From NCBI GenBank assembly GCA_030295235.1, contig AP026150.1:310001-374000 (forward strand): 64,000 bases of DNA. The letters run 5' to 3'. Below the pieces are notes generated by a model. The model did no database searches. It was not told where the DNA came from and saw nothing but the letters and a program-made list of their open reading frames with translations. Each line of letters begins with the position of its first letter. Position 1 is the first letter of the stretch. The position numbers and the translations under genes are program-made. Source of the DNA: Fistulifera solaris (Eukaryota). Positions 9,804-42,732 of the stretch are shown piece by piece.

Positions 9804-11062
9804 TCATGTGTTCCTAGGAATATGATGTTAGCTGCCTCTCGACTGTAAAGATATTATCTGCTGAATTGATCCTTACTGAAGGAGCAGGACTATGATTTTC
9901 TGATCGTTTGGTCGAGTTCTTCATTTTTATGGCTTGATGATTTATCTAGTTCTTTCGTGCTACTGAAAAACGTTGAATCATCGCGTTTGTTACCTGAATT
10001 TTGAATCGATGAAGAGGAGCTATCATTGCTTGTTTCCTTTACTTGCATCAACACGGGGCAATTTTGCTGTCCATAAAAATTCTAGTTAATGAAAAGCCTT
10101 TTTAAAAGGTTTGGATCAGATGACAAAGGGCACTGAAGCACGCTATCAAACAAAGTAAATGTTGTTGCCGGACGTCTTAAAGAACGAGGGGCGCGAACGC
10201 ATCGTCGTGTGTCTTAAAATGCGGCTGTTTACTCAGGAAATGCATAATGCTTGCGAGGTTTCGCTAACAGGAAATGCACAATGCTTGCGAGGTTTAGCTA
10301 GCAGCAAACGAACGAACATCCCTGTGGAACATATACCAGGTACTCCTTTGCAGACAACAACACACATGGGTACAAAAAACAAAAAACGCAAGACCGCAAG
10401 ACAAGTCAAGATCCCCAAGGAATATTTAGCCTCTTTGACTACAGTATCGAAAGTAGATTACGTACAAAGTATTCCAGAATGATTAGCGACTAGCGACCTG
10501 CGACCTGGTACCTGGTAGAATGAATACTACGTAGTACGTACTACGGTATTGTAAAGGCATTTAGAATTTCAGCACGTTGCCCATCAAAAATATAAGCCCT
10601 TCCGAATAAATCGAAATTATTGAATTTCATGACTAAATCCACTTGTCTTAACGGCAATTCGCCTTCTGTGATTAGGACACGGTTTCAGATTTAAGGGACG
10701 ATTAGAACTAGACTACGGTCATGCGATGCCTCCGAGTCCCCAATAAGCTTCATGAATACCGATGCACTATAGAGCTGTAAAGATTACGGAAAGATTACGA
10801 CCAGAAAAGAGGACTAAGGGAATGCCATAAACCCCAAAGAGTTATTGCGAATCACGAAATCGTAAACAAGGCAAGACACCTGGCATTGAAAGTCATAGAG
10901 TTGGGGGCGAATTTTATTCGGATTTAGCACCGTCCAGTTCAACCTCCTCCCAAACCGTTTCACCAATCGACCATATCAGATGGCCCACAACTTTGTTTGA
11001 AAACAAAACGTTGTCTTCTTCCTCTTGCTGCTTTTGAATAAGAAGCCAATCTAAAGTAAACG

Positions 11063-14000
11063 ATGAAAGTAATCAACAGCGTCCTCGCTCTGGTTGCGCT
11101 CCTCAGCTGCGCCGCTGATGCTGAGGTAAGTATTCGAAGAATGGCAAAACGTTTTATGTGTGCTCCGCATGTTATCTTTGAAGGTACATTCGTTTCATTA
11201 ATACCGTTTGATTGTACTAATGTCATCCTTTTGCTGCCATTCACTAGACTGTGGATCGCAATCTTCAGAAAACTACAACCAAGAAGGCGCTCGGAGAAGC
11301 CTGCCAAGTCACCTACAACTCAAGCGCTGACAAGTACACGCCCGTGAAGAACATGGAATGTGCGGCCGGCCTTGTATGCTCCGAGCTTAACGACAATGGT
11401 GTCGACGGAGTAGCCTTTACAGGAGTCTGCAACAGAGAATCTTGCGATGGAACTGCCGATCCATCTGTTGACCAACCCATTAGCTCGCATCGTGTCACCA
11501 TCTGCCATCGCACCTGCTCCGAAACGAATCCGTGGGTGCGTATTACTATCGACGATGACGCCTGGGGTGGCGCTGAAGCTTCTGGATGCGGTCATCAGCG
11601 CGAGCACAACGTCACAGAAGATTGCAACAAGGACGATTACTCTGCCTGGGGTCCCAACCGTGTCGACTACTTGATCAAAGATCACGGTACACGCTCAGAT
11701 GTTCGAATCAGGAACTCATTCACCCCCGCTCAAGAGAAAGCTTACTGGTTTTATTGGGAACGCGCTTGCCCGTATGTGCGCGCCAAGAAGCTAAACAAAC
11801 CGTGCTGTGACTGGGCCAAAGGCGAATGCTGCGGTCCTCATCCTGACGACAAGTGCCCCATGGATCCCGACAAGATGACTCCTGGGCAGTGCGGTTGTGG
11901 TGTCCCTGATACAGATACGGACAAAGATGGCGTTGCTGATTGCCTTGACAAGTGCCCTGGACACAACGATAGCATCGACACGGACAAAGACGGAATCCCT
12001 GATGGCTGCGACAAATGCGCCACCGGCGACGATAAGATCGACACTGATAAGGACGGCGTCCCTGACGCTTGCGATCGTTGCCCTAATAACAAGTTTGTCT
12101 CCACGGAAGCTGGCCTCAAAGGATGCACCTGCACTGCAACTGAAACGCAGCTGCAAACAGGGTGTGTACAAGAGGTGGCACAATGTCCTTTGTGCGGCTG
12201 TGGAAAGCAGGATTTGGACACTGATCGTGATGGTATCTTGGACTGCTTTGACGTCTGCCCTAACGATCCCAAGAAATCTGCAAATGCTGGTACCTGCGGT
12301 TGCGGCAAGCCTGAGACCGACTCGGATGGTGACGGAACACCTGACTGCCTGGATGTTTGCCCCAACGACAAGACTAAGACCACATCTGCAGGACACTGTG
12401 GCTGCGGTGTCTCTGAAGTGGATACTGACGGCGATGGTACACCTGATTGCAAGGACGGATGCCCTCGTGATAAGACTAAACTTACTCCCGGAGTGTGCGG
12501 ATGCGGAGTCTCCGATAAAGACTCGGATACGGATGGCACCGCTGACTGCAAGGACGCCTGTCCCTCCGACAACCTGAAAATTGCGCCTGGTATTTGCGGA
12601 TGCGGTATTTCAGACTGTGATTCTGACATGGACGGAACTGTGGATTGCAAGGATGAGTGCCCTCAAGATCCTCTCAAAATCAAGGCCGGGGTGTGCGGCT
12701 GCGGAGTAAGGGATGTCGATACCGACGGCGATGGAACTCCTGATTGTAAAGATGCTTGCCAAGATGACCCCTCGAAGACTCAACCAGGCCTCTGTGGATG
12801 CGGCAAAACCGATTCGGATAACGATGGAACCTGCGATGCCAACGATCAATGCCCGATGGATCCCAACAAGAATAAGATGGGATTGTGCGGTTGTGGCGTG
12901 GGTGAGACCGATTCCGATCTCGATGGAACACCCGACTGTCTGGATGGATGCGCCCTCGATAGCAACAAGATCACTCCAGGAATTTGTGGCTGCGGTATGG
13001 CTGACACGGACACGGACAAGGACGGTACTCCCGATTGCAATGATGGCTGCTCGACCGACGCCAAAAAGATTGCCGCTGGCGTTTGCGGCTGTGGCGTACC
13101 TGATGTCGATACGGATAAGGATGGTGCACCGGATTGTGTTGATGAGTGCCCTCAGGATGGTAGCAAGATCTTGGCTGGCACATGCGGCTGTGGAGTTTCG
13201 GAAAAGGATTCGGACGGCGACGGCACCAAGGATTGCCAGGATGCTTGCTCAGCTGATCCGGACAAAATCAGTCCTGGAAAATGCGGTTGCGGCATCCCTG
13301 ATGTTGATAGTGATGGTGATGGTACCCCCGACTGTTTGGACGCATGCAGCGCCGATCCTACCAAGACAGCGGCTGGTGTATGCGGTTGTGGAACGTCGGA
13401 CATTGATTCGGATGCCGATGGTGTCGCCGATTGCAACGATAAGTGTCCGTACGATCAAGGAAAGACTTCCCCAGGACAGTGTGGCTGTGGTAACGCTGAC
13501 ACAGATACGGATTCGGATGGTACTGCTGACTGCAATGATAAGTGTCCCACAGACCCCAAGAAGACTGAACCCGGCATGTGCGGATGCGGTGTCGTTGATG
13601 CAGATGCCGACGCTGATGGTTCATGCGACCACAATGACAAATGCCCCTCGGACCCCAAGAAGACCGACATGGGTCTCTGTGGCTGTGGTATAGCTGATAC
13701 TGACTCGGATGGCGACAAAGTGCCCGACTGCCTCGACGGTTGCTCATCTGACCCTACAAAGACAGCTCCAGGGGCCTGTGGATGTGGAAAAGCGGATACG
13801 GATAGCGATGGCGACGGTGTTCCTGATTGCAATGATGGATGCTCGGAAGATGCGGACAAGACGGAGCCAGGAACGTGCGGTTGCGGTTCGCCTGATGTGG
13901 ATACGGACAAAGACGGTGTCCTTGACTGCGATGACGGCTGCTCGACTGACCCCGATAAGACTGAGCCAGGAACGTGTGGCTGCGGCACACCTGAGACGGA

Positions 14001-15702
14001 TTCTGACAACGACGGCGTCCCAGACTGCACTGACTTGTGCCCCAACGACATTTACAAGACAGAGCCTGGCTCTTGCGGATGTGGCAAACAAGAAACAGAT
14101 GCAGACAGTGACGGGACACCTGACTGCAACGATCTTTGCCCCTTGAACCCTGCCATGACGACCGATGTTGACACGGACGGCGATGGAACGCTTGATTGCA
14201 ATGACGGATGTTCTGACGACCCGGAGAAGATTGCCCCCGGTGAATGCGGCTGCGGTTTCCCTGACGTTGATTCTGATGAAGATGGTGTAATGGACTGCAA
14301 CGAAGTTCGCGAAGACATCACATTGACCAGCTCGAACCTCATCGGAACGACCGAAACATACAAGGAGTGCTACAAGATGTACAACGCCGGAAACAACGAC
14401 CCCAACTTTTCAGGATTTGTCGAAGCTGCCACTGCTTATTGCCTCGCCGACTGCGTCGCTGGCGCATATTGTATCAAGGTCCAGGCAGCTTCTGGCATTC
14501 ATCTCGCTGACAAGGAGGCCTGGTTCAAGGATTACTCTTCGGGCACTTGTAGCATCCAACCTCTTGCACCAGGAATCATTCTCACCTACGATAGTAGCGA
14601 TCATGTCATCATGTGGGAAGGATGCTTCAAGATTCCGGAAGGAGCCACAGGAGAGAGCATCGAGATTCACGCCAACTGGGGATACTCCGGGAGCACCGGC
14701 CTCGGAAACACTGCTTCGACAGGACAGCCTAACGGGGTTGCAATGGACTACCCCGAATGTCTCGTCACTGAAACCACGCCTTTGACGACTCCTGTCGACG
14801 CACCTGCCGACGTTCCAGTTGAATCACCTGTTGACACACCCGTGGAGTCGCCCGTTGACCTCGAATCTTCCCCCGTGTCGTCGCCCACTGGCTCTACTGT
14901 TGACAACGACCCCACCGTTGGCCTTCCCACCGCGAACCAAGTTGGCGATGGTGAGTCCGGAGGTGGATTTGGTGATCCTCACTTGAAGACTTGGATGGGA
15001 GAGGTGTACGACTTCCACGGAGCTTGCGACCTAGTTCTTGTTTCGAGCCAAACTTTCAACAACGGAGCTGGTCTCGACCTGCACATCCGTACCAAGATCC
15101 GTGACGACTGGTCTTTCATTTCTGATGCCGCTGTTCGTATCGGTGAGGATGTTTTGGAAGTAGGAACTCGCGCCTACTACTATTTGAATGGAGTTGCCGG
15201 TGCCGAGATGCCCGCCACGGTTGGTGGATTCCCTGTCTCGTTGACTCACTTCGGAACCAAACGTCACAAGTTCGAGATCGACCTCGGTCACATGGGAGTC
15301 ATTGTCATTAAGGTCTTCAACGAGTTCCTCGCTGTCGAAGTCAACAACGCCCACAGCGACGGCTTCGGTGACAGTGTCGGTCTCATGGGTACTTTCACGG
15401 ACGGCAGCCTCATCGGACGCAATGGTTTGGTTCATGCCGATCACAATGAATTTGGTTTGAGCTGGCAGGTTCACGATACGGATGTCATTTTGTTCCAAAA
15501 GGTCGAAGGCCCCCAGTATCCTCAGCTCTGCCAGATGCCTGCACCCAAGGCTTTGAAGAGTCGTCGTATGTCGGAAGCGCTTGTTAGCTTTGAAGATGCC
15601 GCCAAGGCCTGCGCCGACTGGTCGGAGGAGACTCGCGAATCTTGCATTTACGATGTCATGTCGACTGGTGACTTGGACATGGCTGAAGCTGGCGCATTCT
15701 AA
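11063..15702 (+). CDS. Secreted TSP3-like/CGCG-repeat protein with C-terminal GDPH/VWD-like domain, copy 1 (intron 11126-11247)
   Basis: Signal peptide MKVINSVLALVALLSCAADA; intron joins in frame to the 1483-aa ORF; 22 CGCG motifs, mostly in units DxDxDGxxDCxDxCxxDxxKxxxGxCGCG; GFGDPHLKTWMGEVYDFHGACDLVL domain. Confidence 0.9.
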
Positions 15703-16213
15703 GATCGTTTTTATGTAGTTTTGGCTAACGAGGATCAGAGCCGAAAGTAAGGATAACACATAACGATATAGTCTATCTTAGTACACAAGAGATTGTCCTC
15801 AGCTTGATAAATCGATCCGGTTCATGTTGATTTGTGCGTAGAAGTTCTGTTCAACTCCAGGCCGATTGACTGATCTCCTTAAGGTGGGTGAACCTCGATC
15901 GCAGGACTTACAAAAGGATGAAACCAACCATGCGTCCTTCGTGCTCGTGCAGCTTTCATCCTCTTCACCGACGGCACTGTGCTTTATCATCATCCCTATT
16001 AAGAGAGCACTGATTAGAGATATTGACCCAAGACTGAATCCTTGCACTTCATCCTACGGAGTATCATCGAACGCGAAGAGCATGGTTCGTTCATAAGTCA
16101 TAAGCCTTGATCAAAAATCAAAAGAGCTTACTTAGGCATTCCACTTTAGTCTTCAGAAGACTTTTCCACTCTTTGTCATATTTTCTTTCCTTTCAATAAT
16201 GAAGCGAACTTCT

Positions 16214-16241
16214 CCGGAGTCCGGAGTCCGGAGTCCGGAGT
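16214..16241. repeat. (CCGGAGT)4 heptamer tandem repeat
   Basis: Four exact copies seen directly. Confidence 0.9.
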
Positions 16242-16885
16242 GAAATTTCTCCGCACTGAAAGACTTGCAACTTGCAAGTTGCAAGCGTAAAGCATAAAGA
16301 AAACTCCGTACCAGGTACTCCGTTCTCTTCGGCGTGATTTTTGATGTCATCCGGATTTACAGTCAGGCCAACGTCTATACGAGTACAAAGGAATATCTGG
16401 AGTCTGGAGCCGTACACTCCTTTGGTAAATACTTTGTACTTTGTATGCACTCAATGGTCTTTAGTCATTTGGTGATTGCTGATTGCATTTCCTCTACCTG
16501 GTACCTGGTACTTGTATCGGGTATCTCTCTGGTCTTGAAATCTATCGAAAAGTAAAGTCTCCAATTACTACGTAGCTCATAGGGATACTGGTAAGGAGAA
16601 ATCACAAATAATCACGATCAAAATCCGGATCCATTGAGTGCTGACTATAGTATTTAATGTATGATCCATTTTAGATTGGGCCTTTCGTCGGGCACAAAAA
16701 GTCATAGGCAGTCGGGGGAATGGATTATTTACAGTTTACAGAACAACTACCTGGTAGTGCCCTTTGTCCAAGGTCCGCAGCTTTCTCTGGTAAATCAAGC
16801 CGCGATTCTCCCGCCCACAACTTTGAAATTCAACAAACGTTGTCTACCTCTTCCTTTTGAAAAGATAAAAAAACTAAAGTAAAGG

Positions 16886-19800
16886 ATGAAACTCATCAAC
16901 AACGCGCTGATTCTCACGGCGCTTTTGACGTGGTTGACAGATGCGCAAGTAAGTGTTTAATGGACTGATGGGACTCGAGCAAGCGACTGCTGAAAATGAA
17001 AGTCTAACGTTACAAATGCTTTTGCAACCAGTCTGTTGAGCGCGTACTTCAAAAATCTTCATCAACCAGTAACTCAGGTAATACGTCGACCAAGAAAGCA
17101 CTCGGGCAATCCTGTCAAGTTACCTACAATTCAAACGCCGACAAGTACATGGGCGTCAAGGGTATGGAATGTGATGCTGGGCTTGTCTGCTCCGACCTCA
17201 ACGACAACGGTCTGGATGGTGTCGTGTTTACCGGTGTGTGCAACCGTGAGTCATGCGATGGAACTGCCGATCCATCCGTGGACCAGCCCATTAGCTCCCG
17301 CCGTGTTACTATCTGCCATCGCACTTGCTCGCCAACCAACCCGTGGGTGCGCATTACAATCGACGATGATGCATGGGGTGGACCAGACGCTTCCGGATGT
17401 GGTCATCAACGTAATCACAACGTCACTCAGGACTGCAACAGGGCCGATTACTCCCCTTGGGGCCCTAATCGTGTCGATTATTTGATCAAAGACCACGGTA
17501 CTCGCTCGGACGTTCGTGCCAGAAACCCTACCTGGACCACTGCTCAAGAGAAAGCTTACTGGTTTTATTGGGAACGCGCTTGCCCTTACGTGCGCGCCAA
17601 GAAACTCAGCAAACCTTGCTGTGATTGGGCCAAGGGAGAATGCTGTGGTCCCCACCCCGACGATCTATGTCCCATGGATCCTAATAAGATGGCGCCCGGC
17701 CAGTGTGGATGCGGAGTTCCTGATACAGATACGGACAAAGATGGCGTTGCTGATTGCCTTGACAAGTGCCCTGGACACAACGATAGCATCGACACGGACA
17801 AAGACGGAATCCCTGATGGCTGCGACAAATGCGCCACAGGGGACGATAAGATCGACACTGATAAGGACGGCGTCCCTGACGCTTGCGATCGTTGCCCTAA
17901 TAACAAGTTTGTCTCCACGGAAGCTGGCCTCAAAGGATGCACCTGCACTGCAACTGAAACGCAGCTGCAAACAGGGTGTGTACAAGAGGTGGCACAATGT
18001 CCTTTGTGCGGCTGTGGAAAGCAGGATTTGGACACTGATCGTGATGGTATCTTGGACTGCTTTGACGTCTGCCCTAACGATCCCAAGAAATCTGCAAATG
18101 CTGGTACCTGCGGTTGCGGCAAGCCTGAGACCGACTCGGATGGTGACGGAACACCTGACTGCCTGGATGTTTGCCCCAACGACAAGACTAAGACCACATC
18201 TGCAGGACACTGTGGCTGCGGTGTCTCTGAAGTGGATACTGACGGCGATGGTACACCTGATTGCAAGGACGGATGCCCTCGTGATAAGACTAAACTTACT
18301 CCCGGAGTGTGCGGATGCGGAGTCTCCGATAAAGACTCGGATACGGATGGCACCGCTGACTGCAAGGACGCCTGTCCCTCCGACAACCTGAAAATTGCGC
18401 CTGGTATTTGCGGATGCGGTATTTCAGACTGTGATTCTGACATGGACGGAACTGTGGATTGCAAGGATGAGTGCCCTCAAGATCCTCTCAAAATCAAGGC
18501 CGGGGTGTGCGGCTGCGGAGTAAGGGATGTCGATACCGACGGCGATGGAACTCCTGATTGTAAAGATGCTTGCCAAGATGACCCCTCGAAGACTCAACCA
18601 GGCCTCTGTGGATGCGGCAAAACCGATTCGGATAACGATGGAACCTGCGATGCCAACGATCAATGCCCGATGGATCCCAACAAGAATAAGATGGGATTGT
18701 GCGGTTGTGGCGTGGGTGAGACCGATTCCGATCTCGATGGAACACCCGACTGTCTGGATGGATGCGCCCTCGATAGCAACAAGATCACTCCAGGAATTTG
18801 TGGCTGCGGTATGGCTGACACGGACACGGACAAGGACGGTACTCCCGATTGCAGTGATGGCTGCTCGACCGACGCCAAAAAGATTGCCGCTGGCGTTTGC
18901 GGCTGTGGCGTACCTGATGTCGATACGGATAAGGATGGTGCACCGGATTGTGTTGATGAGTGCCCTCAGGATGGTAGCAAGATCTTGGCTGGCACATGCG
19001 GCTGTGGAGTTTCGGAAAAGGATTCGGACGGCGACGGCACCAAGGATTGCCAGGATGCTTGCTCAGCTGATCCGGACAAAATCAGTCCTGGAAAATGCGG
19101 TTGCGGCATCCCTGATGTTGATAGTGATGGTGATGGTACCCCCGACTGTTTGGACGCATGCAGCGCCGATCCTACCAAGACAGCGGCTGGTGTATGCGGT
19201 TGTGGAACGTCGGACATTGATTCGGATGCCGATGGTGTCGCCGATTGCAACGATAAGTGTCCGTACGATCAAGGAAAGACTTCCCCAGGACAGTGTGGCT
19301 GTGGTAACGCTGACACAGATACGGATTCGGATGGTACTGCTGACTGCAATGATAAGTGTCCCACAGACCCCAAGAAGACTGAACCCGGCATGTGCGGATG
19401 CGGTGTCGTTGATGCAGATGCCGACGCTGATGGTTCATGCGACCACAATGACAAATGCCCCTCGGACCCCAAGAAGACCGACATGGGTCTCTGTGGCTGT
19501 GGTATAGCTGATACTGACTCGGATGGCGACAAAGTGCCCGACTGCCTCGACGGTTGCTCATCTGACCCTACAAAGACAGCTCCAGGGGCCTGTGGATGTG
19601 GAAAAGCGGATACGGATAGCGATGGCGACGGTGTTCCTGATTGCAATGATGGATGCTCGGAAGATGCGGACAAGACGGAGCCAGGAACGTGCGGTTGCGG
19701 TTCGCCTGATGTGGATACGGACAAAGACGGTGTCCTTGACTGCGATGACGGCTGCTCGGCTGACCCCGATAAGACTGAGCCAGGAACGTGTGGCTGCGGC

Positions 19801-21560
19801 ACACCTGAGACGGATTCTGACAACGACGGCGTCCCAGACTGCACTGACTTGTGCCCCAACGACATTTACAAGACAGAGCCTGGCTCTTGCGGATGTGGCA
19901 AACAAGACACAGATGCAGACAGTGACGGGACACCTGACTGCAACGATCTTTGCCCCTTGAACCCTGCCATGACGACCGATGTTGACACGGACGGCGATGG
20001 AACGCTTGATTGCAATGACGGATGTTCTGACGATCCGGAGAAGATTGCCCCCGGTGAATGCGGCTGCGGTTTCCCTGACGTTGATTCTGATGAAGATGGT
20101 GTAATGGACTGCAACGAAGTTCGCGAAGACATCACCTTGACAAGTTCCAACCTGATCGGAACTAATCAACCGTACAAAGAGTGCTACAAGATGTACAACG
20201 CCGGAAACAGCGATCCTAAATTTTCGGGATACGTTGAGGCCGCCAAAGCATACTGTCTAACCGACTGTGCTATCGGAGCAATGTGCATCACAGTGCAAGC
20301 GGCCCCCGGAATCCAGCTCGCTGACAAGGAGGCCTGGTTCAAAGACTACACAGTCGGCACTTCCAGTCTACAGCCGCTTGCTCCCGGAATCAAATTGACC
20401 TTCGACAAGAGCGGCAAGCAGGTCATCGCCTGGGAAGGTTGCTTCGAAATCCCAGAGGGAGCAACTGGAGAAAACGTCGAGATCCACGCAAACTGGGGCT
20501 ACTCGGGAAGCAAAAGGTTGGAAACACCGCTTCCACAGGCAAACCCAATGGAGTAATTATGGCGTACGATCAGTGTCTCCTGACAGAAGCCAACGTGGTG
20601 ACTTCTGCGGCTCCTGTAGTAACGCCTGTTGCAGTTCCTGTTAACACTCCGGTTGCAGCACCAACTGGAAGCCCTGTTGCTAAACCTGTTGACACACCAG
20701 TCGAGGCGCCTGTTGAGCTTGAGTCCTCTCCTGTTTCCTCGCCCACTGGCGCTACCGTTGACAACGACCCCACGGTCGGTCTCCCAACCGCCAACCAAGA
20801 AGGCGATGGCGAGTCCGGAGGCGGCTACGGTGATCCCCACTTGAAGACCTGGATGGGAGAGGTGTACGACTTCCACGGAGCTTGCGATCTTGTTCTTGTA
20901 TCGAGCCAAACTTTCAACAACGGAGCTGGCCTCGACGTGCACATTCGTACCAAGATCCGTGACGACTGGTCTTTCATTTCTGATGCCGCTGTTCGCATCG
21001 GTGACGATGTCTTGGAGGTTGGAACCCGTGCCTATTACTACTTGAACGACGTTGCCGGTGCCGAGATGCCCGCCACGGTTGGTGGATTCCCCGTCTCGTT
21101 GACTCACTTCGGAACCAAACGTCACAAGTTCGAGATCGACCTCGGTCACATGGGAGTCATTGTCATTAAGGTCTTCAACGAGTTCCTCGCTGTCGAAGTC
21201 AACAACGCCCATAGCGACGGCTTCGGTGACAGTGTCGGTCTCATGGGTACTTTCACGGACGGCAGCCTCATCGGACGCAATGGTTTGGTTCATGCCGATC
21301 ACAATGAATTTGGTTTGAGCTGGCAGGTTCACGATGCCGATGGCCTTTTGTTCCAGAAGGCCGAAGGACCTCAGTATCCTCAGCTTTGTCAAATGCCTGC
21401 TCCAAAGTCAATGAAGAGTCGTCGCATGTCGGAATCGCTTGTCAGTTTCGATGTTGCGGCCAAGGCCTGCGCTGACTGGTCGGAGGAGACTCGCGAATCT
21501 TGCATTTACGATGTCATGTCGACCGGTGACTTGGACATGGCGGAAGCTGGCGCATTCTAA
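16886..21560 (+). CDS. Secreted TSP3-like/CGCG-repeat GDPH/VWD-like protein, copy 2 (intron 16949-17031; apparent frameshift at A-run 20512-20515)
   Basis: Signal peptide MKLINNALILTALLTWLTDA; same architecture as copy 1. One added A joins ORF 17149-20556 to ORF 20439-21560 (SGSKKVGNTASTG, as in the paralogues). Confidence 0.88.
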
Positions 21561-22082
21561 ATCATGATCTTGAAATTGATTTGCGGTGGCAAAAGTGCCG
21601 GAAAGAAACTTTCAGACGGTGAGCAGTGATTCTCCAGAGCACACATTCAATTTATAGTATTCAATTTTATAAAAAAAGGAAATATGTTCTTACTTTGTAC
21701 TTACTAGCGCGAATTGTTAGCTTCAAGAATCGATTTTTTATCTTGGAGAAGGTTGGATTCGCTAGTTGGTCGAACTTAGCAGTCAGGCCGTAGATGAGAG
21801 TCTTGAGACTTGAGACTAAGGTCTTGAGGCTTCAGGTAGTTGTACAAGTTACAAGTAGATCTCTGCCTCTCCCTCTCCGCCTCCGCTACCTATCCATCTC
21901 CGATCTCCGCACTCTGCTCCGCTCACTGCTCCGCTTCTCGTTTGCTGGCCCTTGTTCCTAAACAGTTTAATGTACAGTCCCAATTCCCGAATGACCCAGA
22001 ACCCAGACATAAGGCCCAAGGCAGTTCCTCGCAACTCGCAACTTAAAAGCCAATCGGGAATCGCGCCATCTTTGCGGTTTGG

Positions 22083-22198
22083 CTAGGGTCCCGACTGGTT
22101 GTACCCGTCCATGACGGACCCGGACGGGTATGGAGGGCCTTCGGCCCCTGTCCGTGTCCGTGGGACGGGGCAAACTTTCAACCCGGTCGGAACCCTAG
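22083..22198. mobile_element. Foldback MITE-like element (~110 bp) with terminal inverted repeats, flanked by CTAG (TA or CTAG TSD)
   Basis: Left CTAG-GGTCCCGACTGGTTG versus reverse complement of right end CTAG-GGTTCCGACCGGGTTG; internal inverted arms CCCGTCC..ACGGAC / GTCCGT..GGACGGG; central GGGCC-TTC-GGCCC hairpin; GC-rich relative to flanks. Confidence 0.65.
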
Positions 22199-22798
22199 GT
22201 TTGGCGGTCGTCGAAATCGGATTAAGGAAGAAAAAAATGGTTGCGCAGGGCGTCTTGACTTTATGGGCTATACTAATGGCAAACGGAAAACGGAAAAACG
22301 GGAGTTAATTTTGATGAATATATTCGGTACTATAGTTTACTTAAATTCCAAGTCCCAAAATGTCAAAGGTCGAGCTGTTTAGGGCCACGTTTCAACTCTC
22401 CACCTCAGAATGATGACATGTTCCACGGTCAACGATCAACTGTATATAAGAAATGGATATCTCACTAGGTTTACAGTGAGGAACACTAGCATACTTGGCC
22501 TCTCTAAATGAATTACCAGTGAAACAGTCACTGATTACTCAGCATTCAGATGCAGTACTTTTGAATTGACAAAGGGGAGTTCATCCCGTGAACGACCAAG
22601 ATCGGAAACAGTACTGGAATGTGTTTGAAATGTAGTTGAATACAAACTCTGTGGCGAAAAGCAAGACCTAAGATCCGGCCCTGCGAGTCATCATGTGCCA
22701 AGCGTTTCTTGATCGATCGAATCACGAAATTTCTCACAACTTTGAAAATCATCCAAACGTTGTCCTCGTTTCTCTTTGAAAAAGTAAGCAAAACAAGC

Positions 22799-25700
22799 AT
22801 GAAATTCATCAACAGTGCGCTCATTGCGGCAGCTCTCTTTCTGTCCGTCGCCGATGCTCAGGTATGTTTAGGCTTAGTGCTTAATTGTGTTCCTTGCCCC
22901 GGTGATCTTTATTAGACTCATTCTTCAATCACTCTTCTAAGGTGACGGCACGATTTCTCCAAAAAGCAAAAACGACCAGCTATGGCGGTTGCAGCCCCGA
23001 AAGAACTCTCGGACAATCCTGTCAAGTTACCTACAATGCAAACGCCGACAAGTACATGGGTGTGAAGGGTATGGAATGCGATGCTGGCCTCGTCTGCTCT
23101 GAACTCAACGACAACGGAGTAGACGGAGTGGCGTTTACTGGTGTTTGCAACAAAGAAGATGACTACGGACTTGCAGACCCTGACGGCAGCAGCAAATGTG
23201 GCTCTCGTCGTGTCACCATCTGTCATCGCACGTGCTCGCCCACGAACCCATGGGTGCGTATCACGATTGATTCAAGCGCGTGGTACGGTCCCACCGGAAC
23301 AGGCGGAGGCCACCAACGTGAACATGATGTCTTGAAAGACTGCAAGAGAGACGATTACTCTCCCTGGGGTCCGAACACGAAAGATTATTTGATCAGAGAC
23401 CACGGAACTCGCTACGATGTCAAGGCCAGAAACCCCACGTGGAACACTGCTCAAGAGAAAGCTTACTGGTTTTATTGGGAACGCGCTTGCCCTTACGTCC
23501 GCTCCACAAAGTTGAATGGCAAGATGTGCTGTGACTGGGCCAAGGGCGAATGCTGCGGTGTTCATCCCAACGACAAGTGCCCCTTGGATCCCAACAAGAT
23601 GGAGCCAGGTCAATGCGGTTGCGGAGTTCCTGATACAGATACGGACAAAGATGGCGTTGCTGATTGCCTTGACAAGTGCCCTGGGCACAATGATAAATTG
23701 GACGCTGACAAAGACGGAATCCCTGATGGCTGCGACAAATGCGCTACCGGCGACGACAAGATCGACACTGATAAGGACGGCGTCCCTGACGCATGCGATC
23801 GTTGCCCTAATAACAAGTTTGTCTCCACGGAAGCTGGCCTCAAAGGATGCACCTGCACTGCAACTGAAACGCAATTGCAAACTGGATGCATTGAGACGAA
23901 AACAATCCAGTGTCCTCGTTGTGGCTGTGGTAAGGTCGATGTCGACACTGATGGTGATGGTACCTTGGACTGCTTTGACGTCTGCCCTAACGATCCCAAG
24001 AAGACCACTTGTGCTGGGAGATGCGGTTGCGGCAAGCCTGAGACCGACTCGGATGGTGACGGAACACCTGACTGCTTGGATGTCTGCCCCAACGACAAGA
24101 CTAAGACCTCATCCGCAGGACATTGTGGCTGCGGTGTCTCTGAAGTGGATACTGATGGCGATGGTACACCAGATTGCAAGGACGGATGCCCTCGTGATAA
24201 GTCTAAACTTACTCCCGGAGTGTGCGGATGCGGAGTCTCCGATAAAGACTCGGATACGGATGGCACCGCTGATTGCAAGGACGCCTGTCCCTCTGATAAC
24301 CTGAAGATTGCGCCTGGTATTTGCGGATGCGGTGTTTCAGACAGAGATTCCGATTTGGATGGAACTGTTGACTGCAAGGACGAATGCCCCCGAGATCCGC
24401 TCAAAATCAAAGCTGGAGTTTGCGGCTGCGGAGTCAGTGATGTCGATACTGACGGCGATGGAACTCCTGACTGCAAAGATGCATGTCAGTACGATCCTAC
24501 GAAGACTAAACCAGGCCTCTGTGGATGCGGCAAAACCGATTCGGATAACGATGGAACCTGCGATGCCAACGATCAATGCCCGACTGATCCCAACAAGAAT
24601 AAGATGGGATTGTGCGGTTGTGGCGTGGGTGAGACCGATTCCGATCTCGATGGAACACCCGACTGCATAGATGGATGCACCATCGATAGTACCAAGACCA
24701 GCCCAGGCGTTTGTGGCTGTGGTGTGCCTGACACGGACTCGGACAAGGATGGTACACCCGACTGTGACGACGACTGCCCAAGTGACGCCACGAAGATTGC
24801 CCCTGGAGTGTGCGGCTGTGGTGTACCTGATGTTGACACGGACAAGGATGGAACCCCTGACTGTGCTGACGAATGTCCCCAAGATGGGAAGAAGCTCGTA
24901 CCCGGAATTTGCGGCTGTGGAGTTTCTGAGATTGACTCCGATGGTGACGGTACGCCTGATTGCCAGGACACTTGTCCTAAAGATCCGGATAAGATCTGTC
25001 CTGGAAAATGCGGTTGCGGCATCCCTGATGTTGATACTGATGGTGATGGTACCCCCGATTGCTTGGACGCATGCAGCGCCGATCCTACCAAGACAGCGGC
25101 TGGTGTATGCGGCTGTGGAACTTCGGACATTGATTCGGATGCTGATGGTGTCGCCGATTGCAACGATAAGTGCCCGTACGATCAAGGAAAGACTACCCCA
25201 GGGCAATGTGGATGTGGTAGCGCAGAAACCGATTCCGACAACGATGGCATTGCTGACTGCAAAGACAATTGCCCGAAGGACCCTAAGAAGACTGAACCCG
25301 GCATGTGCGGATGTGGAGTGGTGGATGCAGATGCAGACGCTGATGGTTCATGCGACCACAAAGACAAATGCCCCTCGGACCCAAAGAAAACCGACATGGG
25401 CCTCTGTGGCTGTGGTATAGCTGATACTGACTCGGATGGCGACAAAGTGCCCGACTGCCTCGACGGCTGCCCGTCTGACCCTAAGAAGACAGCTGCTGGC
25501 GCGTGTGGCTGTGGAAAAGCGGATACGGATAGCGATGGCGACGGTGTTCCTGATTGCAATGATGGATGCTCGGAAGATTCGGACAAGACGGAGCCAGGAA
25601 CGTGCGGTTGCGGTTCGCCTGATGTGGATACGGACAAAGACGGTGTCCTTGACTGCAATGACGGCTGCTCGGCTGACCCCGATAAGACTGAGCCAGGAAC

Positions 25701-27441
25701 GTGTGGCTGTGGCGTTCCGGAGACTGATTCTGACAGCGATGGTGTTCCGGACTGCAAGGACTTGTGCCCCAATGACGTCTTCAAGACCGAGCCTGGATCA
25801 TGCGGGTGTGGCAAAGAAGATACGGATACCGATCGCGATGGCACGCCCGACTGCAACGATCTTTGCCCCACGGACCCCACCATGACGACCGACGTTGATA
25901 CCGATGGAGATGGTGTTTACGACTGCGAAGACGAGTGCTCGGAAGACCCTGCCAAGACAGAACCTGGTGTTTGTGGTTGCGGAATTCCTGATACGGACTC
26001 TGACTTAGATGGCGAGATGGACTGCAAGGAGGTTCGCGAGGTCCTCAATTTTACAAGCTCCAACCTCATCTCAACTACCGAAACGTACAAGGAATGCTAC
26101 AAGATGTACAACGCCGGAAAGAACGACACCAAGTTCTCAGGATTCCTTCAAGCTGCCACCGCTTACTGCCTTGCTGACTGCAAGGCGGGTGCCATGTGTA
26201 TCAAGGTCCAGGCTGCCTCTGGAATCCAGCTTGGCAACACCGAGGCTTGGTTCAAGGATTACTCTGACTGCAACAGCGCTATCCAGCCTCTCCCCCCCGG
26301 AATTACTCTCACGCACGACAAGAGCGGCAAGGTGATTGCATGGGAGGGATGCTTCAAGATTCCGGAAGGAGCTACAGGTGAAGAAATCGAGATTCATGCC
26401 AACTGGGGCTTCACGGGAAGCACGGTAATTGGAAACACTGCTTCTACAGGCAAACCGAATGGAGTCGTGATGGACTACCCTGAATGTCTCATTCCTGGAG
26501 GCAACCTCGTGGGGACTCCAGAATCGACGCCTGTTGCTGCTCCTGTTGACACTCGTGTCACGCCGCCCATCGATACTCCCGTTGAGGCGCCCGTTGAACT
26601 CGAATCGTCTCCTGTTGCCGCGCCCACTGGCTCTACTGTTGACAACGACCCCACCGTTGGCCTTCCCACCGCGAACCAAGTTGGCGATGGTGAGTCCGGA
26701 GGTGGATTTGGTGATCCTCACTTGAAGACTTGGATGGGAGAGGTGTACGACTTCCACGGAGCTTGCGACCTAGTTCTTGTTTCGAGCCAAACTTTCAACA
26801 ACGGAGCTGGTCTCGACCTGCACATCCGTACCAAGATCCGTGACGACTGGTCTTTCATTTCTGACGCCGCTGTTCGTATCGGTGAGGATGTTTTGGAAGT
26901 AGGAACTCGAGCCTACTACTATTTGAATGGAGTTGCCGGTGCCGAGATGCCCGCCACGGTTGGTGGATTCCCCGTCTCGTTGACTCACTTCGGAACCAAA
27001 CGTCACAAGTTCGAGATCGACCTCGGTCACATGGGAGTCATTGTCATTAAGGTCTTCAACGAGTTCCTCGCTGTCGAAGTCAACAACGCCCATAGCGACG
27101 GCTTCGGTGACAGTGTCGGTCTCATGGGTACTTTCACGGACGGCAGCCTCATCGGACGCAATGGTTTGGTTCATGCCGATCACAATGAATTTGGTTTGAG
27201 CTGGCAGGTTCACGATGCCGATGGCCTTTTGTTCCAGAAGGCCGAAGGACCTCAGTATCCTCAGCTTTGTCAAATGCCTGCTCCTATGGCATTGAAGAGT
27301 CGTCGCATGTCGGAATCACTTGTTAGTTTTGAAGATGCCGCTGTTGCTTGCGCTGACTGGACCGATGAAACTCGCGAATCTTGCATTTACGATGTCATGT
27401 CGACTGGTGATTTAGACATGGCTCAGGCTGGTGCCTTCTAA
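22799..27441 (+). CDS. Secreted TSP3-like/CGCG-repeat GDPH/VWD-like protein, copy 3 (intron 22862-22941)
   Basis: Signal peptide MKFINSALIAAALFLSVADA; intron joins in frame to the intact 1499-aa ORF with the same architecture. Confidence 0.9.
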
Positions 27442-40227: not shown

Positions 40228-40822
40228 TCTCCTGTGGTAAAAATATATTATTCATTGCTAAATGATGTGCTAAAAATGATTTCTTGCCGGAAACGAGTCA
40301 ATGAAGCCAATCAATGTTGCAATGAAATAGCGAGCGGCAATTCACGGTTTTTATCATTCGTGACTTCTGTGTCACAACAGTCACAAAATAAACTTTCTCG
40401 TCTGCTCGTCATCCGACTTTGGTGTCAAGCAAACGGGCAAGTTTTGGCAGCGTCATTTTCGTGGCTGATTTTCTATCATCGACGCTCGCGGGGTTCGCAC
40501 AGCGAGCAAGGGAGGGGTGGCACTTCTACTCCGACACGTCCTAACGTCGTGTCTTTCTACCCAAACTTTATTACCAAAAGCACCCCTATGCACTTTCCCT
40601 ACAAAGTGTACAAGAGCCACTATTAACTTCATAGAATAATCCAAGTGTGCCACAGGATGTAAACGATAAACATCAACCCGAACTCGTCATTCCTCTGAAA
40701 ACCGAAATTTTCTCCTTGTCCTTGACACCTTCATTCTAGAAACAAACGGATCTGTCTTCGAAGTGACCCCGACACAAAATCTACCGACCCCCATCGGAAC
40801 CCTAAAACAATAAAACAACACC

Positions 40823-42732
40823 ATGATCTTGAATACGGCTGCGCGCTTGATTTTTCTCCAGAGCCGTCAAACGCTCTCCAAGGCCGTTGCCGCTCGGTCG
40901 GTCGCTTCCTTAGCCGGGTCTTCATTGCGTCCTACGGTTCGTACAACCTCGCCGTGCCGTCAACAGTTCGCCTTCAAGTCGACGGCCATGCATCCTGCCG
41001 ATGATACGGCTGGTCGTGACGCGTATGATATCGCACGGACCGTCGAAGGAACGGATGCTTGCTTAAAGATGGGTTTGAACCGCTTGGGAATCACCGGTCC
41101 CACCAAACTCTTCAGCAATCTCACGTATCAAGAGCTCTTTGACCACGAAGTCGCCAACAAGGAAGGTGTCGTTGCGAAAGCTGAGTACGGTGATACCTTC
41201 ACTGTCGACACGGGTAAGTTCACCGGGCGTTCGCCTCTGGATCGTTGGATCGTTCTCAATCCAGGAAGCGAGACGGCCGAACACATGGACTGGAACAAGA
41301 TCAACCAGCCGACAAGTCCCGAAGTCTTTGACGAGCTTCTGGAAAAAGCTGTCGCTTACTTCAACACGCGAGAGACTGCGTATGTCTTTGATGGATATTG
41401 TGGTGCGAATCCGGAAACGCGCAAGAAAATCCGGTTCGTTCACGAAATGGCCTGGCAGCAGCATTTTGGTAAGTCTTTTTGCTTGGATAATTCGACGAAT
41501 GCGTCAATATTGCACCGTTGTTCTAATTTTTTCTTTTATCTATAGTGACAAACATGTTCATTCGTCCCGAAACTCGCGAAGAGATTGAGAATTTCGAGCC
41601 CGACTTTACCGTCATCAACTGCTGCAGTCAGGTCGACGAGGACTGGAAGCGACACAACTTGCACAGCGACACGGCGGTTGTGTTCAATCCGGAGAAGAAG
41701 ACGGCGGTCATTTTCGGCACCTGGTACGGTGGAGAAAATAAGAAGGGCATCTTTTCACTCATGAACTTTTGGTTGCCCCTCAAGGGTCACTTTCCCATGC
41801 ACTGTAGTGCGAATGTCGGCAAAGACGGAGACGTTTGCTTATTCTTCGGGTTGTCCGGAACTGGCAAGACAACTTTAAGTGCCGATCCCCATCGTGCTTT
41901 GATAGGCGATGATGAGCACGGATGGGATGATCATGGAGTTTTCAATTTTGAGGGAGGATGCTACGCCAAGACGATCAACTTATCGGAAAAGACAGAGCCC
42001 GACATCTACCGGGCCATCAAGACCGATGCTCTATTGGAAAATGTCAAGATTCGTGAGGATGGGACACCTGACTATTTCGACACGAGCAAGACTGAAAATG
42101 GACGCGTTTCGTACCCGATTTTCCACATTCCAGGATACCACAAACCCCAAATGGCCGGGCATCCCAACAACATCATCTTCTTGACATGCGATGCCTATGG
42201 TGTTATGCCCCCTGTTGCTCGTCTCACTCCAGAACAAGCGATGTACCACTTTTTGAGTGGATACACAGCCAAGGTTGCCGGAACCGAGCGTGGAATTAAG
42301 GAGCCGACCGCTACATTTTCCACGTGCTTTGGTGCCGCTTTCATGACTCATCATCCTACTCGCTATGCGGACTTACTGCGAGAGAAACTTGAAAAACATG
42401 GATCCCATGCTTATTTGGTAAACTCGGGCTGGTCGGGCGGTCCATATGGCGAAGGAAAGCGCATGAGTATTGATACTACCCGTGCTTGTATTGATGCTAT
42501 TCTTGATGGATCCATCCACGACGCTGAGTTTGTGAAGGATCCCATTTTTGGTTTCGAAGTCCCGAAAGCGTTGCATGATGTAGGAGGAGTTTTGGACCCT
42601 AAATCGACTTGGAAAGACCCCGCGGCTTACGACAAGATGGCATTGCACCTTGCCAAACTCTTTAAAGAGAACTTCAAGAATTACGAGGGTCGGGGAACTG
42701 TCGACTACACCAAGTTCGGTCCACAGATCTAA
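40823..42732 (+). CDS. PCK1: ATP-dependent phosphoenolpyruvate carboxykinase, mitochondrial presequence (intron 41469-41545)
   Basis: [71 protein letters not shown]; Arg/Ser-rich N-terminus. Confidence 0.97.

Follow-up and report, generated by a model that had tools for sequence, protein, structure and literature searches.

What are three giant, cysteine-rich, apparently secreted proteins encoded side by side in a diatom, and do they represent a new system or a new arrangement of known parts? The window considered here (the whole 64,000-nucleotide stretch of DNA that was analysed) carries three such genes head-to-tail on its forward strand, at 11063-15702, 16886-21560 and 22799-27441. Their neighbours are ordinary eukaryote genes, and a spliceosomal intron lies within the gene; the triplet is a tandem set in the nuclear genome of a raphid diatom that is close to Fistulifera.

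Results

Gene structure and module order

In each gene a single short GT..AG intron separates the signal-peptide exon from a giant second exon (Table 1), with open frames of 1484 codons in copy 1, 1182 and 411 codons in copy 2 and 1511 codons in copy 3. The copy 1 protein has 1505 residues, including 125 Cys and 227 Asp, and its signal-peptide exon is nearly identical to the N-terminus of P0006. A signal peptide, as expected for the diatom GDPH family, was found in copies 1-3 by reading the exons and by scanning hydrophobicity. Indeed, the six highest 19-residue hydrophobicity windows all fall within the signal peptide, the maximum being confined to residues 1-9, and the scan therefore revealed neither a transmembrane segment nor a hydrophobic C-terminal tail. 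The preliminary description had proposed three head-to-tail paralogues of about 1500 residues, each with a signal-peptide exon and without a membrane anchor; all of this stands, except that the window's copy 2 contains a frame shift. Upstream of the genes, the motif CACAACTTTG-N10-AAACGTTGTC has two exact matches in the window versus none in 100 shuffles, while the third occurrence, at copy 2, differs in having a gap of 9 nucleotides.

The His/Cys-rich N-domain described earlier is present, at about 190 residues. Its core is a single copy of a motif that is repeated in tandem in bacterial secreted proteins, and it belongs to a large unnamed family, a search having recovered 268 clusters at E<=1e-3, of which 37 reach E<=1e-30. 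The AF2 model of the domain reached a pLDDT of 82.7, and a fold comparison found no match for it. Further downstream, the domain of about 150 residues that had been called variable is indeed there, at 156 residues, but the adjective does not hold: its dN/dS between copies is 0.05-0.13, and it is conserved and simply not homogenised between copies. It also occurs without any array in P0129, P0128, P0184, P0315 and P0316, and is lineage-restricted. It is followed by the anticipated linker, 67 residues rich in P, V, T and S.

Table 1. Positions of the features of the three tandem genes within the window.
Feature	Position	Strand	Description
Copy 1 upstream motif	10986..11015	+	CACAACTTTG-N10-AAACGTTGTC; 48 nt 5' of ATG
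Copy 1 exon 1	11063..11125	+	ATG 11063; signal peptide MKVINSVLALVALLSCAADAE; hydrophobic peak of the protein
Copy 1 intron	11126..11247	+	GT..AG, 122 nt; read from sequence and by analogy with the RNA-spliced copy 2 intron
Copy 1 exon 2	11248-15702	+	Sequence reading
Copy 1 N-domain	11287..11880	+	His/Cys-rich; signature RVTICHRTCSETNPWVRITIDDDAW..GCGH..H
Copy 1 acidic Cys-rich array	11884..14298	+	Three TSP3-like 21-aa loops, Cys-rich spacer, CGCG-type units
Copy 1 middle domain	14299..14769	+	156 aa, 6 Cys
Copy 1 linker	14770..14970	+	P/V/T/S-rich, 67 aa; Gly-rich leader GDGESGGGF at its end
Copy 1 GDPH-type VWD + C8-like domain	14971..15702	+	243 aa and stop codon
Copy 2 upstream motif	16816..16844	+	9-nt gap; sequence reading
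Copy 2 exon 1	16886..16948	+	ATG 16886; signal peptide MKLINNALILTALLTWLTDAQ
Copy 2 intron	16949..17031	+	GT..AG, 83 nt; spliced in RNA contig
Copy 2 exon 2	17032..21560	+	N-domain, array (first CGCG at 17704, last one ends 20070), middle domain, linker, GDPH domain (20829-21557); 1-nt frame shift in window
Copy 2 frame-loss site	20512..20515	+	A4 in window, A5 in run X1
Copy 3 upstream motif	22735..22764	+	Exact match
Copy 3 exon 1	22799..22861	+	ATG 22799; signal peptide MKFINSALIAAALFLSVADAQ
Copy 3 intron	22862..22941	+	GT..AG, 80 nt; predicted from sequence
Copy 3 exon 2	22942..27441	+	Array (first CGCG at 23614, last one ends 25983), GDPH domain 26710-27438, stop 27439-27441

Transcription, the copy 2 frameshift and selection on the triplet

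The possibility that the triplet is an assembly duplication, or includes functionless pseudogenes, is raised by copy 2 itself: its frame 17008-20556 ends at a stop codon at 20554-20556 and the GDPH part lies in another frame. It is raised again by copies 1 and 2 being about 100% identical along about 2.3 kb, a pattern that could also arise if the assembly were collapsed or mis-joined. An independent contig from run X1 (n=1) that reaches from the end of copy 1 across the spacer into the start of copy 2, from a run that may nevertheless be the assembly's own source, carries an extra A behind 20511 at a depth of 12.2 of 12.2. With five A residues at 20512 the reading becomes SKKVGNTAST, the same as in P0125, and with one N inserted behind 20511 copy 2 has no other stops across 1509 codons. 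The probable cause of the frameshift is a homopolymer error (A4/A5) or an allelic difference. Moreover, an RNA contig from metatranscriptome run X5 (n=1) joins 16948 to 17032, skipping 83 nucleotides exactly as modelled; it has 82 letters 5' of the joint, and its exon-2 piece is specific to copy 2 with 0 mismatches. Copy 2 is therefore transcribed and spliced.

The substitution pattern likewise argues against an artefact. Outside the identical block the intergenic DNA, N-domains and middle domains have diverged deeply between copies (dS 1.2-3.0, with dN/dS 0.05-0.13), and each of the 15 segment-by-pair comparisons gave a dN/dS between 0.05 and 0.30. The triplet is shaped by both purifying selection and gene conversion, and we regard an artefactual or functionless triplet as extremely improbable.

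A bacterial-type repeat array with predicted Ca2+ loops

Every copy contains 22 CGCG motifs and 25 DxDxDG motifs, and 16 of the 21 inter-CGCG units of copy 1 are exactly 33 residues long, in agreement with the 33-residue array first proposed. Thirteen of the 33 columns of the unit are invariant, including D5, D7, D9, D13, D16, D21, C18, C30 and C32. The suggestion that the acidic loops are of the thrombospondin type 3 (TSP3) kind was borne out by Pfam TSP_3 (PF02412), which scored 37.8 bits in copy 3, 25.6 in copy 2 and 23.4 in copy 1 against a gathering cut-off of 25 bits, such that two of the three copies lie above it. When the unit profile was compared with the PDB it matched the TSP3 repeats of the OmpA-family structure 5wtl_A at E 4.1e-13 across unit positions 4-20 only, and EF-hand loops more weakly (lanmodulin, 3.4e-4). 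The first half of the unit alone thus appears to resemble a solved TSP3 loop. For the second half (K-x3-G-x-CGCG) the PDB profile search found no counterpart, and because of this our use of the word rod for the array is a guess.

We considered whether these might simply be thrombospondins. Animal thrombospondins and COMP likewise combine DxDxDG-type acidic Ca2+ loops with cysteines (Pfam TSP_3), whereas animal type 3 repeats are not known to contain a CGCG half. Across all four translated frames the Pfam matches were limited to TSP_3, C8-3_MUC4, RGM_C and VWD, with no thrombospondin C-terminal domain, EGF repeats or oligomerisation region beside the type 3 repeats, and no thrombospondin chain appeared among the 60 matches listed of 123 PDB matches to the unit profile. 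A thrombospondin identity was therefore rejected.

Long arrays of the 33-residue unit are found in over 100 further surface proteins, mostly bacterial. Across 1660 units from 118 proteins its consensus is vaDtDsDgDGTpDCnDgCP.DPnKtaPG.CGCG, and in the diatom copies v.DtDsDgDGtpDC.D.Cp.Dp.Kt.PG.CGCG. The unit is thus common to the diatom copies and to bacterial and protist proteins, the latter being 'thrombospondin type 3 repeat-containing' surface proteins, among them those of Planctomycetota, Bdellovibrionota and Myxococcota and T9SS proteins of Bacteroidota; their arrays of 15-32 units share 47-66% identity with those of the diatom. The diatom copies differ in having their own diatom-specific flanks (N-domain, middle domain and GDPH domain), and their genes differ in the intron and genomic neighbourhood noted above. 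A literature search found no organism in which a function of the CGCG-type array has been established.

The composition of the array (98 Cys and 189 D+E versus 60 K+R in the 805 residues of copy 1) invites comparison with frustulins, which are Ca2+-binding glycoproteins with acidic Cys-rich (ACR) domains. Secreted and anchorless, the window's proteins could similarly belong to the organic layer that encases the silica wall rather than to trail or mucilage. Yet the resemblance to frustulins is one of composition only, and all detectable homologies of the non-repeat modules point towards GDPH/VWD proteins and adhesive-type partners, so that a wall-casing role seems unlikely to us.

The GDPH module as a probable divergent VWD domain

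In all three copies the tetrapeptide GDPH lies 243 residues from the C-terminus, opening a domain of about 240 residues that is common to diatom secreted proteins. Relatives number 42 at E<=1e-3, with 37-95% identity (among proteins of 514-2000 residues), and none of the 28 aligned domains departs from G, D, P and H at the four motif positions. The VWD-like character ascribed to this domain in the preliminary description was upheld at the level of the family: the family profile matched FCGBP (8rde_A) at E 2e-19, with profile positions 294-468 aligned to residues 444-617 (175 positions), and also matched MUC5B (1e-6), MUC5AC (2.8e-6), MUC2 (1e-3), RGMB (0.014) and VWF. Similarly, at E<=0.01 Pfam VWD was found in 22 and C8-3_MUC4 in 20 of the 28 members, the best VWD E-value being 4.1e-11. 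The window's own domains score 16.4-16.9 bits and do not reach the Pfam VWD (PF00094) cut-off of 22.9 bits, which relatives pass; the VWD assignment consequently rests on the family profile. A single-sequence AF2 model of the C-terminal 467 residues had a pLDDT of 35.6, too low to confirm the VWD beta-sandwich. By profile similarity, then, the module appears to be a divergent VWD+C8.

It shares with animal VWD-C8 proteins (FCGBP, MUC2, MUC5AC/B, MUC4 and RGM) the start GDPH-x-T-[FW]-x-G-x-x-[YF]-x-F-x-G-x-C and, through weak C8-3_MUC4 and RGM_C matches, a Cys-rich end. Unlike in those proteins, the diatom module stands singly at the very C-terminus, without TIL or E modules. A gel-forming mucin, in which VWD-C8-TIL-E assemblies flank long PTS domains, was rejected on similar grounds: there is one VWD with a C8-like end, Pfam gave neither a TIL nor an E match, and the linker has just 67 residues.

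What might such a module do? In FCGBP every GDPH site is cut in the endoplasmic reticulum, according to PMC8267560, and cleavage of its D10 domain needs both the Asp and the His of the motif (PMC10880436, section 2.4). PMC8267560 also describes a reactive Asp anhydride as the product. This chemistry would allow the GDPH domain to act as a self-removing pro-domain, leaving on the large N-terminal fragment an activated C-terminal Asp that becomes ester-linked to EPS or cell-wall polysaccharide, such that the Ca2+ rod would be grafted covalently onto mucilage and the VWD part discarded. Several features of position fit this idea. A set of 48 related proteins has 52 GDPH sites, and for 43 of these the distance to the C-terminus is 230-270 residues; the stretch of 12 residues N-terminal to GDPH is mostly Gly-rich (GGGG[YFQ]); and the 40 residues upstream contain mostly 0-1 Cys, and none in the window's proteins and their closest relatives, unlike animal VWDs, so that cysteines for a disulfide holding the fragments together are scarce. 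The N-terminal cargo is widely varied as well, including ice-binding-like, PAN, GH16, subtilase and DUF4215 domains and TSP3 arrays.

A precedent comes from the inter-alpha-inhibitor heavy chain (ITIH) precursors, whose C-terminal pro-domains of 239/244 residues (the diatom module, almost always C-terminal, has 243) are described in PMC7170535 as being removed when the new C-terminus of the chain is ester-linked to chondroitin sulfate, and section 2.7 of PMC10880436 places GDPH in the VWD-like sandwich of ITIH3, ITIH5 and ITIH6. Coupling to polysaccharide is known for ITIH but would hold for the diatom proteins by analogy. The N-terminal parts are unrelated. The ITIH C-terminal model was absent among the Pfam matches listed for the 28 GDPH domains at E<=10, in a search whose HMMER filters drop most weak matches. 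In animal VWDs, moreover, GDPH follows the first beta-strand, where the diatom proteins have a Gly-rich leader, and the fragments remain together, and for FCGBP PMC8267560 states that covalent cross-linking through the anhydride was not observed. The case is wholly positional and by analogy; we consider such coupling distinctly unlikely, and a C-terminal self-removing coupling module, as opposed to a multimerisation domain, a doubtful description of the diatom GDPH domain.

Discussion

The link to adhesive-trail proteins that had been drawn for this locus agrees with print, the GDPH domain family having been connected with diatom adhesive trails in bioRxiv 10.1101/2023.03.06.531300. The adhesive-trail proteins, Ac629 and relatives, similarly end in a domain of about 243 residues with an invariant GDPH at its start, and share with the window's proteins a signal peptide, a P/T/S-rich linker and a modular N-terminal cargo. 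Such GDPH proteins of adhesive trails were reportedly described from Amphora coffeaeformis by Lachnit et al. in 2019. The window's proteins differ in their cargo, which combines the His/Cys domain, itself without a name, with a TSP3-type array of 22 CGCG motifs and the middle domain restricted to this lineage.

Based on these comparisons we slightly favour, as the likelier role, a matrix or adhesive protein, secreted and non-anchored, that is loaded with Ca2+, braced by disulfides and processed at GD|PH; here Ca2+ binding, disulfide pattern, cleavage, location and adhesive role are all inferred. The N-terminal His/Cys domain would probably serve as a binding or metal-holding head on a stalk of about 800 residues, built from three short TSP3-like loops and about 21 CGCG-type units, each with a D-x-D-x-D-G-x-x-D acidic loop and four cysteines. 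Judging from the acidic loops the stalk may bind about 25 Ca2+, and two disulfides per unit may brace it into a stiff, strongly acidic rod. The conserved, Cys-containing middle domain would sit between this stalk and a probably O-glycosylated linker, and, if animal VWD domains are a guide, the Asp-Pro bond of GDPH would probably undergo autocatalytic cleavage within the secretory pathway, leaving a structural component of the extracellular matrix in an adhesive trail, mucilage or a cell-surface coat. Both N-domain and GDPH relatives occur with ice-binding-like or adhesive domains (P0131, P0184). Trail adhesive would not be a specific label, because the family is large (87 GDPH proteins in Seminavis, where 61 vWD proteins also carry GDPH) and members have been proposed for non-motility adhesion too, according to PMC8027222 and PMC7335047.

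The head could alternatively be the point of the molecule, with the rod presenting a lectin-like or metal-binding N-domain to bacteria, mating partners or particles instead of acting as structural glue. In other eukaryote proteins this array is paired with C-type lectin, PAN and TSP1 heads, and the tandem bacterial relatives of the N-domain core point the same way. In Seminavis the vWD family is described in PMC7335047 as up-regulated under ten conditions, of which bacterial interactions make up half, and GDPH genes in PMC8027222 as sex-pheromone responsive. These expression data come from another genus and from other family members, however, and the N-domain has neither a fold match found nor a known ligand, so that we rate recognition as very improbable beside the matrix or adhesive role.

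As to novelty, the preliminary description had not recognised the combination as a described family. For the parts this was not sustained: the GDPH family is published, the 33-residue unit is widespread, and array and GDPH domain are fused outside this lineage in P0049 and P0130. The full five-module order was found only in Fistulifera-like proteins, and our literature search, judged by titles and abstracts, found no work that joins TSP3 repeats with diatom proteins. What is new is therefore the arrangement, in which a bacterial-type, putatively Ca2+-binding repeat array is joined to the known GDPH domain of diatom glue, and not a new system. Were the doubtful coupling reading of the GDPH domain true after all, diatom glue would be a covalent protein-polysaccharide composite built via a shared 'cleave-and-graft' tag, which would explain why the same last 243 residues are found on many unrelated N-terminal modules.

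Three tandem genes encode secreted, repeat-rich proteins

The translated plus-strand frames of the triplet span 1484, 1182+411 and 1511 codons in copies 1, 2 and 3, respectively, and encode closely related proteins. All three genes follow the same plan, in which an ATG and a 21-codon hydrophobic leader are followed by a GT..AG intron (122, 83 and 80 nt, respectively) and a single giant exon. Each copy carries 22 CGCG and 25 DxDxDG motifs, and the copy 1 protein contains 125 Cys and 227 Asp among its 1505 residues. These frames, leaders and motif counts bear out the three head-to-tail, repeat-rich paralogues with a signal-peptide exon of the preliminary description, whose start and end coincide exactly with the initiator ATG of copy 1 and the stop codon of copy 3. 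Among 19-residue windows, only those within the leader are strongly hydrophobic; the proteins therefore lack a transmembrane segment, in agreement with the earlier statement that no such anchor is present. An NCBIfam scan of copy 1 returned 0 families. Upstream, the motif CACAACTTTG-N9/10-AAACGTTGTC is common to all three copies, 35-48 nt 5' of each ATG, and has been kept although the remaining spacer sequence between the copies permits no alignment. Its N10-20 form has 2 exact matches in the window versus 0 in 100 shuffles, making it a candidate for a shared promoter or initiator element.

Other ORFs in the window match eukaryotic families (WD40, PPR, Tam41, H+-pyrophosphatase, PEPCK, histidine phosphatases, cyclophilin and Rrp15). 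Given its introns and these ordinary eukaryotic neighbours, the triplet lies in a eukaryotic nuclear genome. Among the neighbours, four ORFs of histidine phosphatase branch 1 (His_Phos_1) fall within 7 kb and look like a second local gene cluster. Separately, H+-pyrophosphatase and PEPCK are each divided between two overlapping or adjacent frames, likely reflecting short introns or frame changes.

Coordinates of the triplet genes, their internal features and neighbouring ORFs within the window
Feature	Position (nt)	Strand	Remark
Copy 1	11063-15702	+	11063, first ATG
Copy 2	16886-21560	+	
Copy 3	22799-27441	+	27441, last stop
Upstream motif, copy 1	10986-11015		
Upstream motif, copy 2	16816-16844		
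Upstream motif, copy 3	22735-22764		
Array tract shared by copies 1 and 2	11950-14200; 17760-20010		copy 1; copy 2
GDPH core shared by copies 1 and 3	14990-15390; 26730-27130		copy 1; copy 3
Region on which run contigs were placed	16700-21700		
Copy 2 splice junction in run X5	16948->17032		GT..AG
Loss of frame in copy 2	near 20510		
Extra A in run X1 contig	behind 20511		
A-run in copy 2	20512-20515		A4 in window
Stop after loss of frame in copy 2	20554-20556		
H+-pyrophosphatase and PEPCK frames	32768-34400; 40814-42732		
His_Phos_1 ORFs	43122-45498; 48493-49842	three +, one -	

Copy 2 is transcribed, and its frameshift is probably a homopolymer error or an allele

Contigs of four public sequencing runs were placed on the copy 2 region. 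One contig of X5, an RNA run from a freshwater metatranscriptome, skips 83 nt between GT and AG (short side, 82 letters), exactly the intron modelled for copy 2, and its exon-2 piece has 0 mismatches to the window. Further X5 contigs match copy-2-specific parts, likewise with 0 mismatches. Therefore, copy 2 is transcribed and spliced in nature, and the organism itself, or a strain almost identical to it, was active in that freshwater environment.

In the window, copy 2 loses its frame and soon meets a stop, with the GDPH part intact in another frame. A contig of run X1 carries an extra A at this place (depth 12.2 of 12.2, one contig), and A5 in place of A4 restores the frame, reading SKKVGNTAST, as does the relative P0125 (335 of 369 positions identical). 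With an N inserted at the frameshift, copy 2 has no further stop in 1509 codons. Because the A5 contig restores the frame and other stops are absent, the frameshift most likely reflects either a homopolymer error or an allelic difference, a reading that draws on one contig of one run, X1 being the run that covers the site and X2, X5 and X6 having no coverage there. No conclusion draws on run X6 or on the small-share runs X7 and X8. X1 is probably a DNA run, since its contig crosses both spacer and intron, and it may be the source of the assembly itself. A missing G in 'ttggaaac', suggested by comparison with copy 1, was rejected as the cause because the X1 contig puts the difference in the A-run.

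The array combines a TSP3-type loop with a CGCG half

Within copy 1, 16 of the 21 units between CGCG motifs are exactly 33 aa long, and 13 of 33 unit columns are invariant (D5, D7, D9, D13, D16, C18, D21, K24, G28, C30, G31, C32 and G33). A word-index search yielded 2431 array relatives at E<=1e-3 among 8000 scored proteins; among the best 120 of these, all but two Fistulifera-like proteins share the array alone, at 37-66% identity. Of the 1968 inter-CGC units in the 118 listed proteins, 1660 have a length of 33 aa, and their consensus matches that of the window. Named holders among the matches listed belong to Planctomycetota, Bdellovibrionota, Myxococcota, Oligoflexia and Bacteroidota. T9SS or MYXO-CTERM sorting domains are present in many of the listed proteins, and a few appear eukaryotic by source or partner domains. 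The latter include two EukProt proteins with array and TSP1 (P0019, P0020), an MMETSP protein with array and C-type lectin (P0091), and an ENA protein with array, TSP1 and PAN (P0029). Because eukaryote-type proteins with these partners also hold arrays, we claim no direction of transfer.

Against solved structures, the whole protein matched solely the OmpA-family chain 5wtl_A (E 0.009). A unit profile matched the five TSP3 repeats of that chain at E 4.1e-13, followed by EF-hand loops. The match to 5wtl_A spans unit positions 4-20 only, and the unit therefore has as its first half an acidic TSP3 loop of the bacterial type; for the K-x3-G-x-CGCG half, no counterpart emerged among the solved structures searched. 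Units within an array share 59% mean and at most 76% identity (120 pairs), whereas units at corresponding positions in copies 1 and 3 share 88% identity (20 units), indicating that the array is old and positionally stable, without recent expansion.

The C-terminal module is the GDPH domain of diatom adhesive proteins

A 'diatom-specific GDPH domain' has been reported from Amphora adhesive proteins, as described in excerpts of three sources (bioRxiv 10.1101/2023.03.06.531300, PMC7335047, PMC8027222), and the C-terminal module of the triplet is that domain. Thus the suggested connection with GDPH proteins of adhesive trails is upheld to the extent of those excerpts. We found 42 longer proteins related to this domain at E<=1e-3, with differing N-terminal partners (ice-binding-like, PAN, NIDO, DUF4215, GH16, subtilase and PF26766). 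In an alignment of 28 sequences G, D, P, H and four Cys are invariant, and the resulting profile matches FCGBP at E 2e-19 over one stretch of 175 aligned positions, and also MUC5B, MUC5AC, MUC2, RGMB and VWF. Single scans at E<=0.01 detected Pfam VWD in 22 of 28 members, C8-3_MUC4 in 20 and RGM_C in 10. These matches identify the GDPH module as a divergent VWD that ends in a C8-like region. The VWD-like character first proposed for the domain thus holds for the family profile and 22 of the 28 members, but the copies' own domains score 16.4-16.9 bits for VWD, under the 22.9 cut-off. Single-sequence AF2 of the C-terminal 467 aa was unusable (pLDDT 35.6).

The position of the module is nearly constant. 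Across 48 relatives, 43 of 52 GDPH sites lie 230-270 residues from the C-terminus, most of the 52 are preceded by a Gly-rich leader, and most have 0-1 Cys in the preceding 40 residues. Excerpts of the literature consulted on the GDPH domain yielded no discussion of this C-terminal position.

The N-domain and middle domain define unnamed families

An exhaustive HMMER search with the 198-aa N-domain found related proteins in 268 clusters at E<=1e-3, of which 83 reached <=1e-10 and 37 reached <=1e-30. Pfam lacks a model for the N-domain; a scan of 24 holders gave no match over it and, for 14 of them, no match anywhere in the protein. Aligning 37 sequences yields the signature RVTICHRTCSETNPWVRITIDDDAW..GCGH..H...DYLIK.HGTR..EK.YW..WE.ACP.VR..CC..G.CCG, with four His kept in >=90% of sequences; from the conserved His and Cys we infer a metal or ligand site. 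GDPH is present in 6 of the 61 best matches and directly follows the N-domain in at least three of these proteins (P0180, P0185 and P0191), and one holder also has a PT repeat and an ice-binding-like adhesive domain. Weaker matches are bacterial-looking secreted proteins (P0225, P0226, P0231, P0233, P0236, P0241, P0251 and P0259) in which a motif of ~50-60 aa, KVTICH[RA]TGSxTNPYVxITV..A..H..HGD..P.P.GGCP, occurs in 3-6 tandem copies. This motif, too, lacks a Pfam model, and one copy of it corresponds to the core of the diatom N-domain. An alignment-based AF2 model of the N-domain was confident (pLDDT 82.7, pTM 0.77). Foldseek found no PDB match to it at E<=0.001 (best 1.8). Of 48,161 chains compared by VIA-align, 20 reached Z>=2 and none reached Z>=5; the best was colipase (Z 3.1, residues 1-51). 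These negative results do not in themselves prove a new fold.

The 156-aa middle domain occurs without the array in the Fistulifera-like VWFD proteins P0129, P0315 and P0316, and also in P0128 and P0184. With only 7 holders, it looks lineage-restricted at the sensitivity of the word-index search. The linker that follows is 67 aa long, P/V/T/S-rich and ends in GDGESGGGF.

The five-module arrangement is confined to Fistulifera-like diatoms in our searches

The full order of N-domain, array, middle domain, linker and GDPH was found only in P0005 and P0006. Both are close relatives: P0005 is among the closest database proteins (74% identity, 100% coverage), and P0006, Fistulifera solaris FisN_18Hu145, is 76% identical over 60% of the query, with the UniRef label merely 'VWFD domain-containing protein'. 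P0125, P0126 and P0127 belong to the same type but are fragmentary or come from truncated models. In our searches, then, the five-module arrangement appears confined to Fistulifera-like diatoms. Two more distant proteins join a CGCG/TSP3 array almost directly to a C-terminal GDPH/VWD: P0049 (1250 aa; TSP_3 56 bits, VWD 23.6 bits), which carries a signal peptide of its own and whose N-terminal part of ~450 aa differs and has no Pfam match, and P0130, a 547-aa fragment with a 64% identical GDPH domain. Because of these two proteins, the fusion of array and GDPH extends beyond the Fistulifera-like lineage, and it is seen in 1 of 118 other listed array holders and 1 of 42 GDPH relatives. The initial view that this is not a described family may stand for the five-module arrangement but does not hold for its parts; GDPH/VWD and the TSP3-type array are known, and the N-domain belongs to a large unnamed family. 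A literature search, whose reach stopped short of Lachnit et al. 2019, found no report of TSP3 repeats joined to diatom proteins.

An old triplet with domain-wise gene conversion

DNA identity along the three copies is a mosaic. Identity is ~100% between copies 1 and 2 across ~2.3 kb of the array and 99% between copies 1 and 3 within the GDPH core, but 62-83% among the N-domains and 61-72% among the middle domains. Similarly, dS is 1.4-1.7 for the N-domain and 1.2-3.0 for the middle domain, as compared to 0.19-0.28 for the GDPH domain and, for the array, 0.52 between copies 1 and 3 and 0.017 between copies 1 and 2. On these estimates the duplication is old, and the array and GDPH domain are undergoing homogenisation by gene conversion. 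Values of dN/dS are 0.05-0.30 across all segments, and all modules are under purifying selection. The juxtaposition of near-identical and deeply diverged segments clearly illustrates gene conversion acting domain by domain within a tandem array of a diatom.

Implications for diatom adhesion

We propose that the triplet proteins are secreted structural components of an extracellular matrix or adhesive, with a stalk that would bind ~25 Ca2+ and be disulfide-braced, a probably glycosylated linker, and a GDPH bond that probably undergoes cleavage within the secretory pathway. In FCGBP the fragments are held together by a disulfide after cleavage; in contrast, the triplet proteins have no upstream Cys, their relatives seldom have one, and the leader is Gly-rich. 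Excerpts of the relevant reports state that every GDPH site of FCGBP is cut in the ER (PMC8267560), that VWD cleavage needs the D and H of the motif and stabilises the VWD, and that ITIH3, ITIH5 and ITIH6 hold GDPH within a VWD-like sandwich (PMC10880436). Inter-alpha-inhibitor heavy chains provide a precedent for a different outcome after cleavage. A corresponding cleave-and-graft role of the diatom module is nevertheless unlikely, because its whole basis is the position of the module and this analogy. Pfam matches of the 28 GDPH domains at E<=10 revealed no sequence similarity to ITIH.

Underwater adhesion and gliding of diatoms are of ecological and economic importance through biofilms and fouling, and to our knowledge only a small number of the participating proteins have been identified. 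The locus offers a clean, expressed example of the GDPH family with a long Ca2+-type repeat rod as cargo. Diatom adhesion depends on Ca2+, and such a rod would tie this dependence to a concrete protein. The analysis also defines two unnamed domain families overlooked by standard annotation, the ICHRT N-domain and the middle domain. Finally, the near-constant C-terminal GDPH, Gly-rich leader and scarce upstream Cys lead to a testable hypothesis on the assembly of diatom glue, and the triplet is chiefly valuable as a well-defined, expressed system in which to test how GDPH-tagged diatom matrix proteins are processed.
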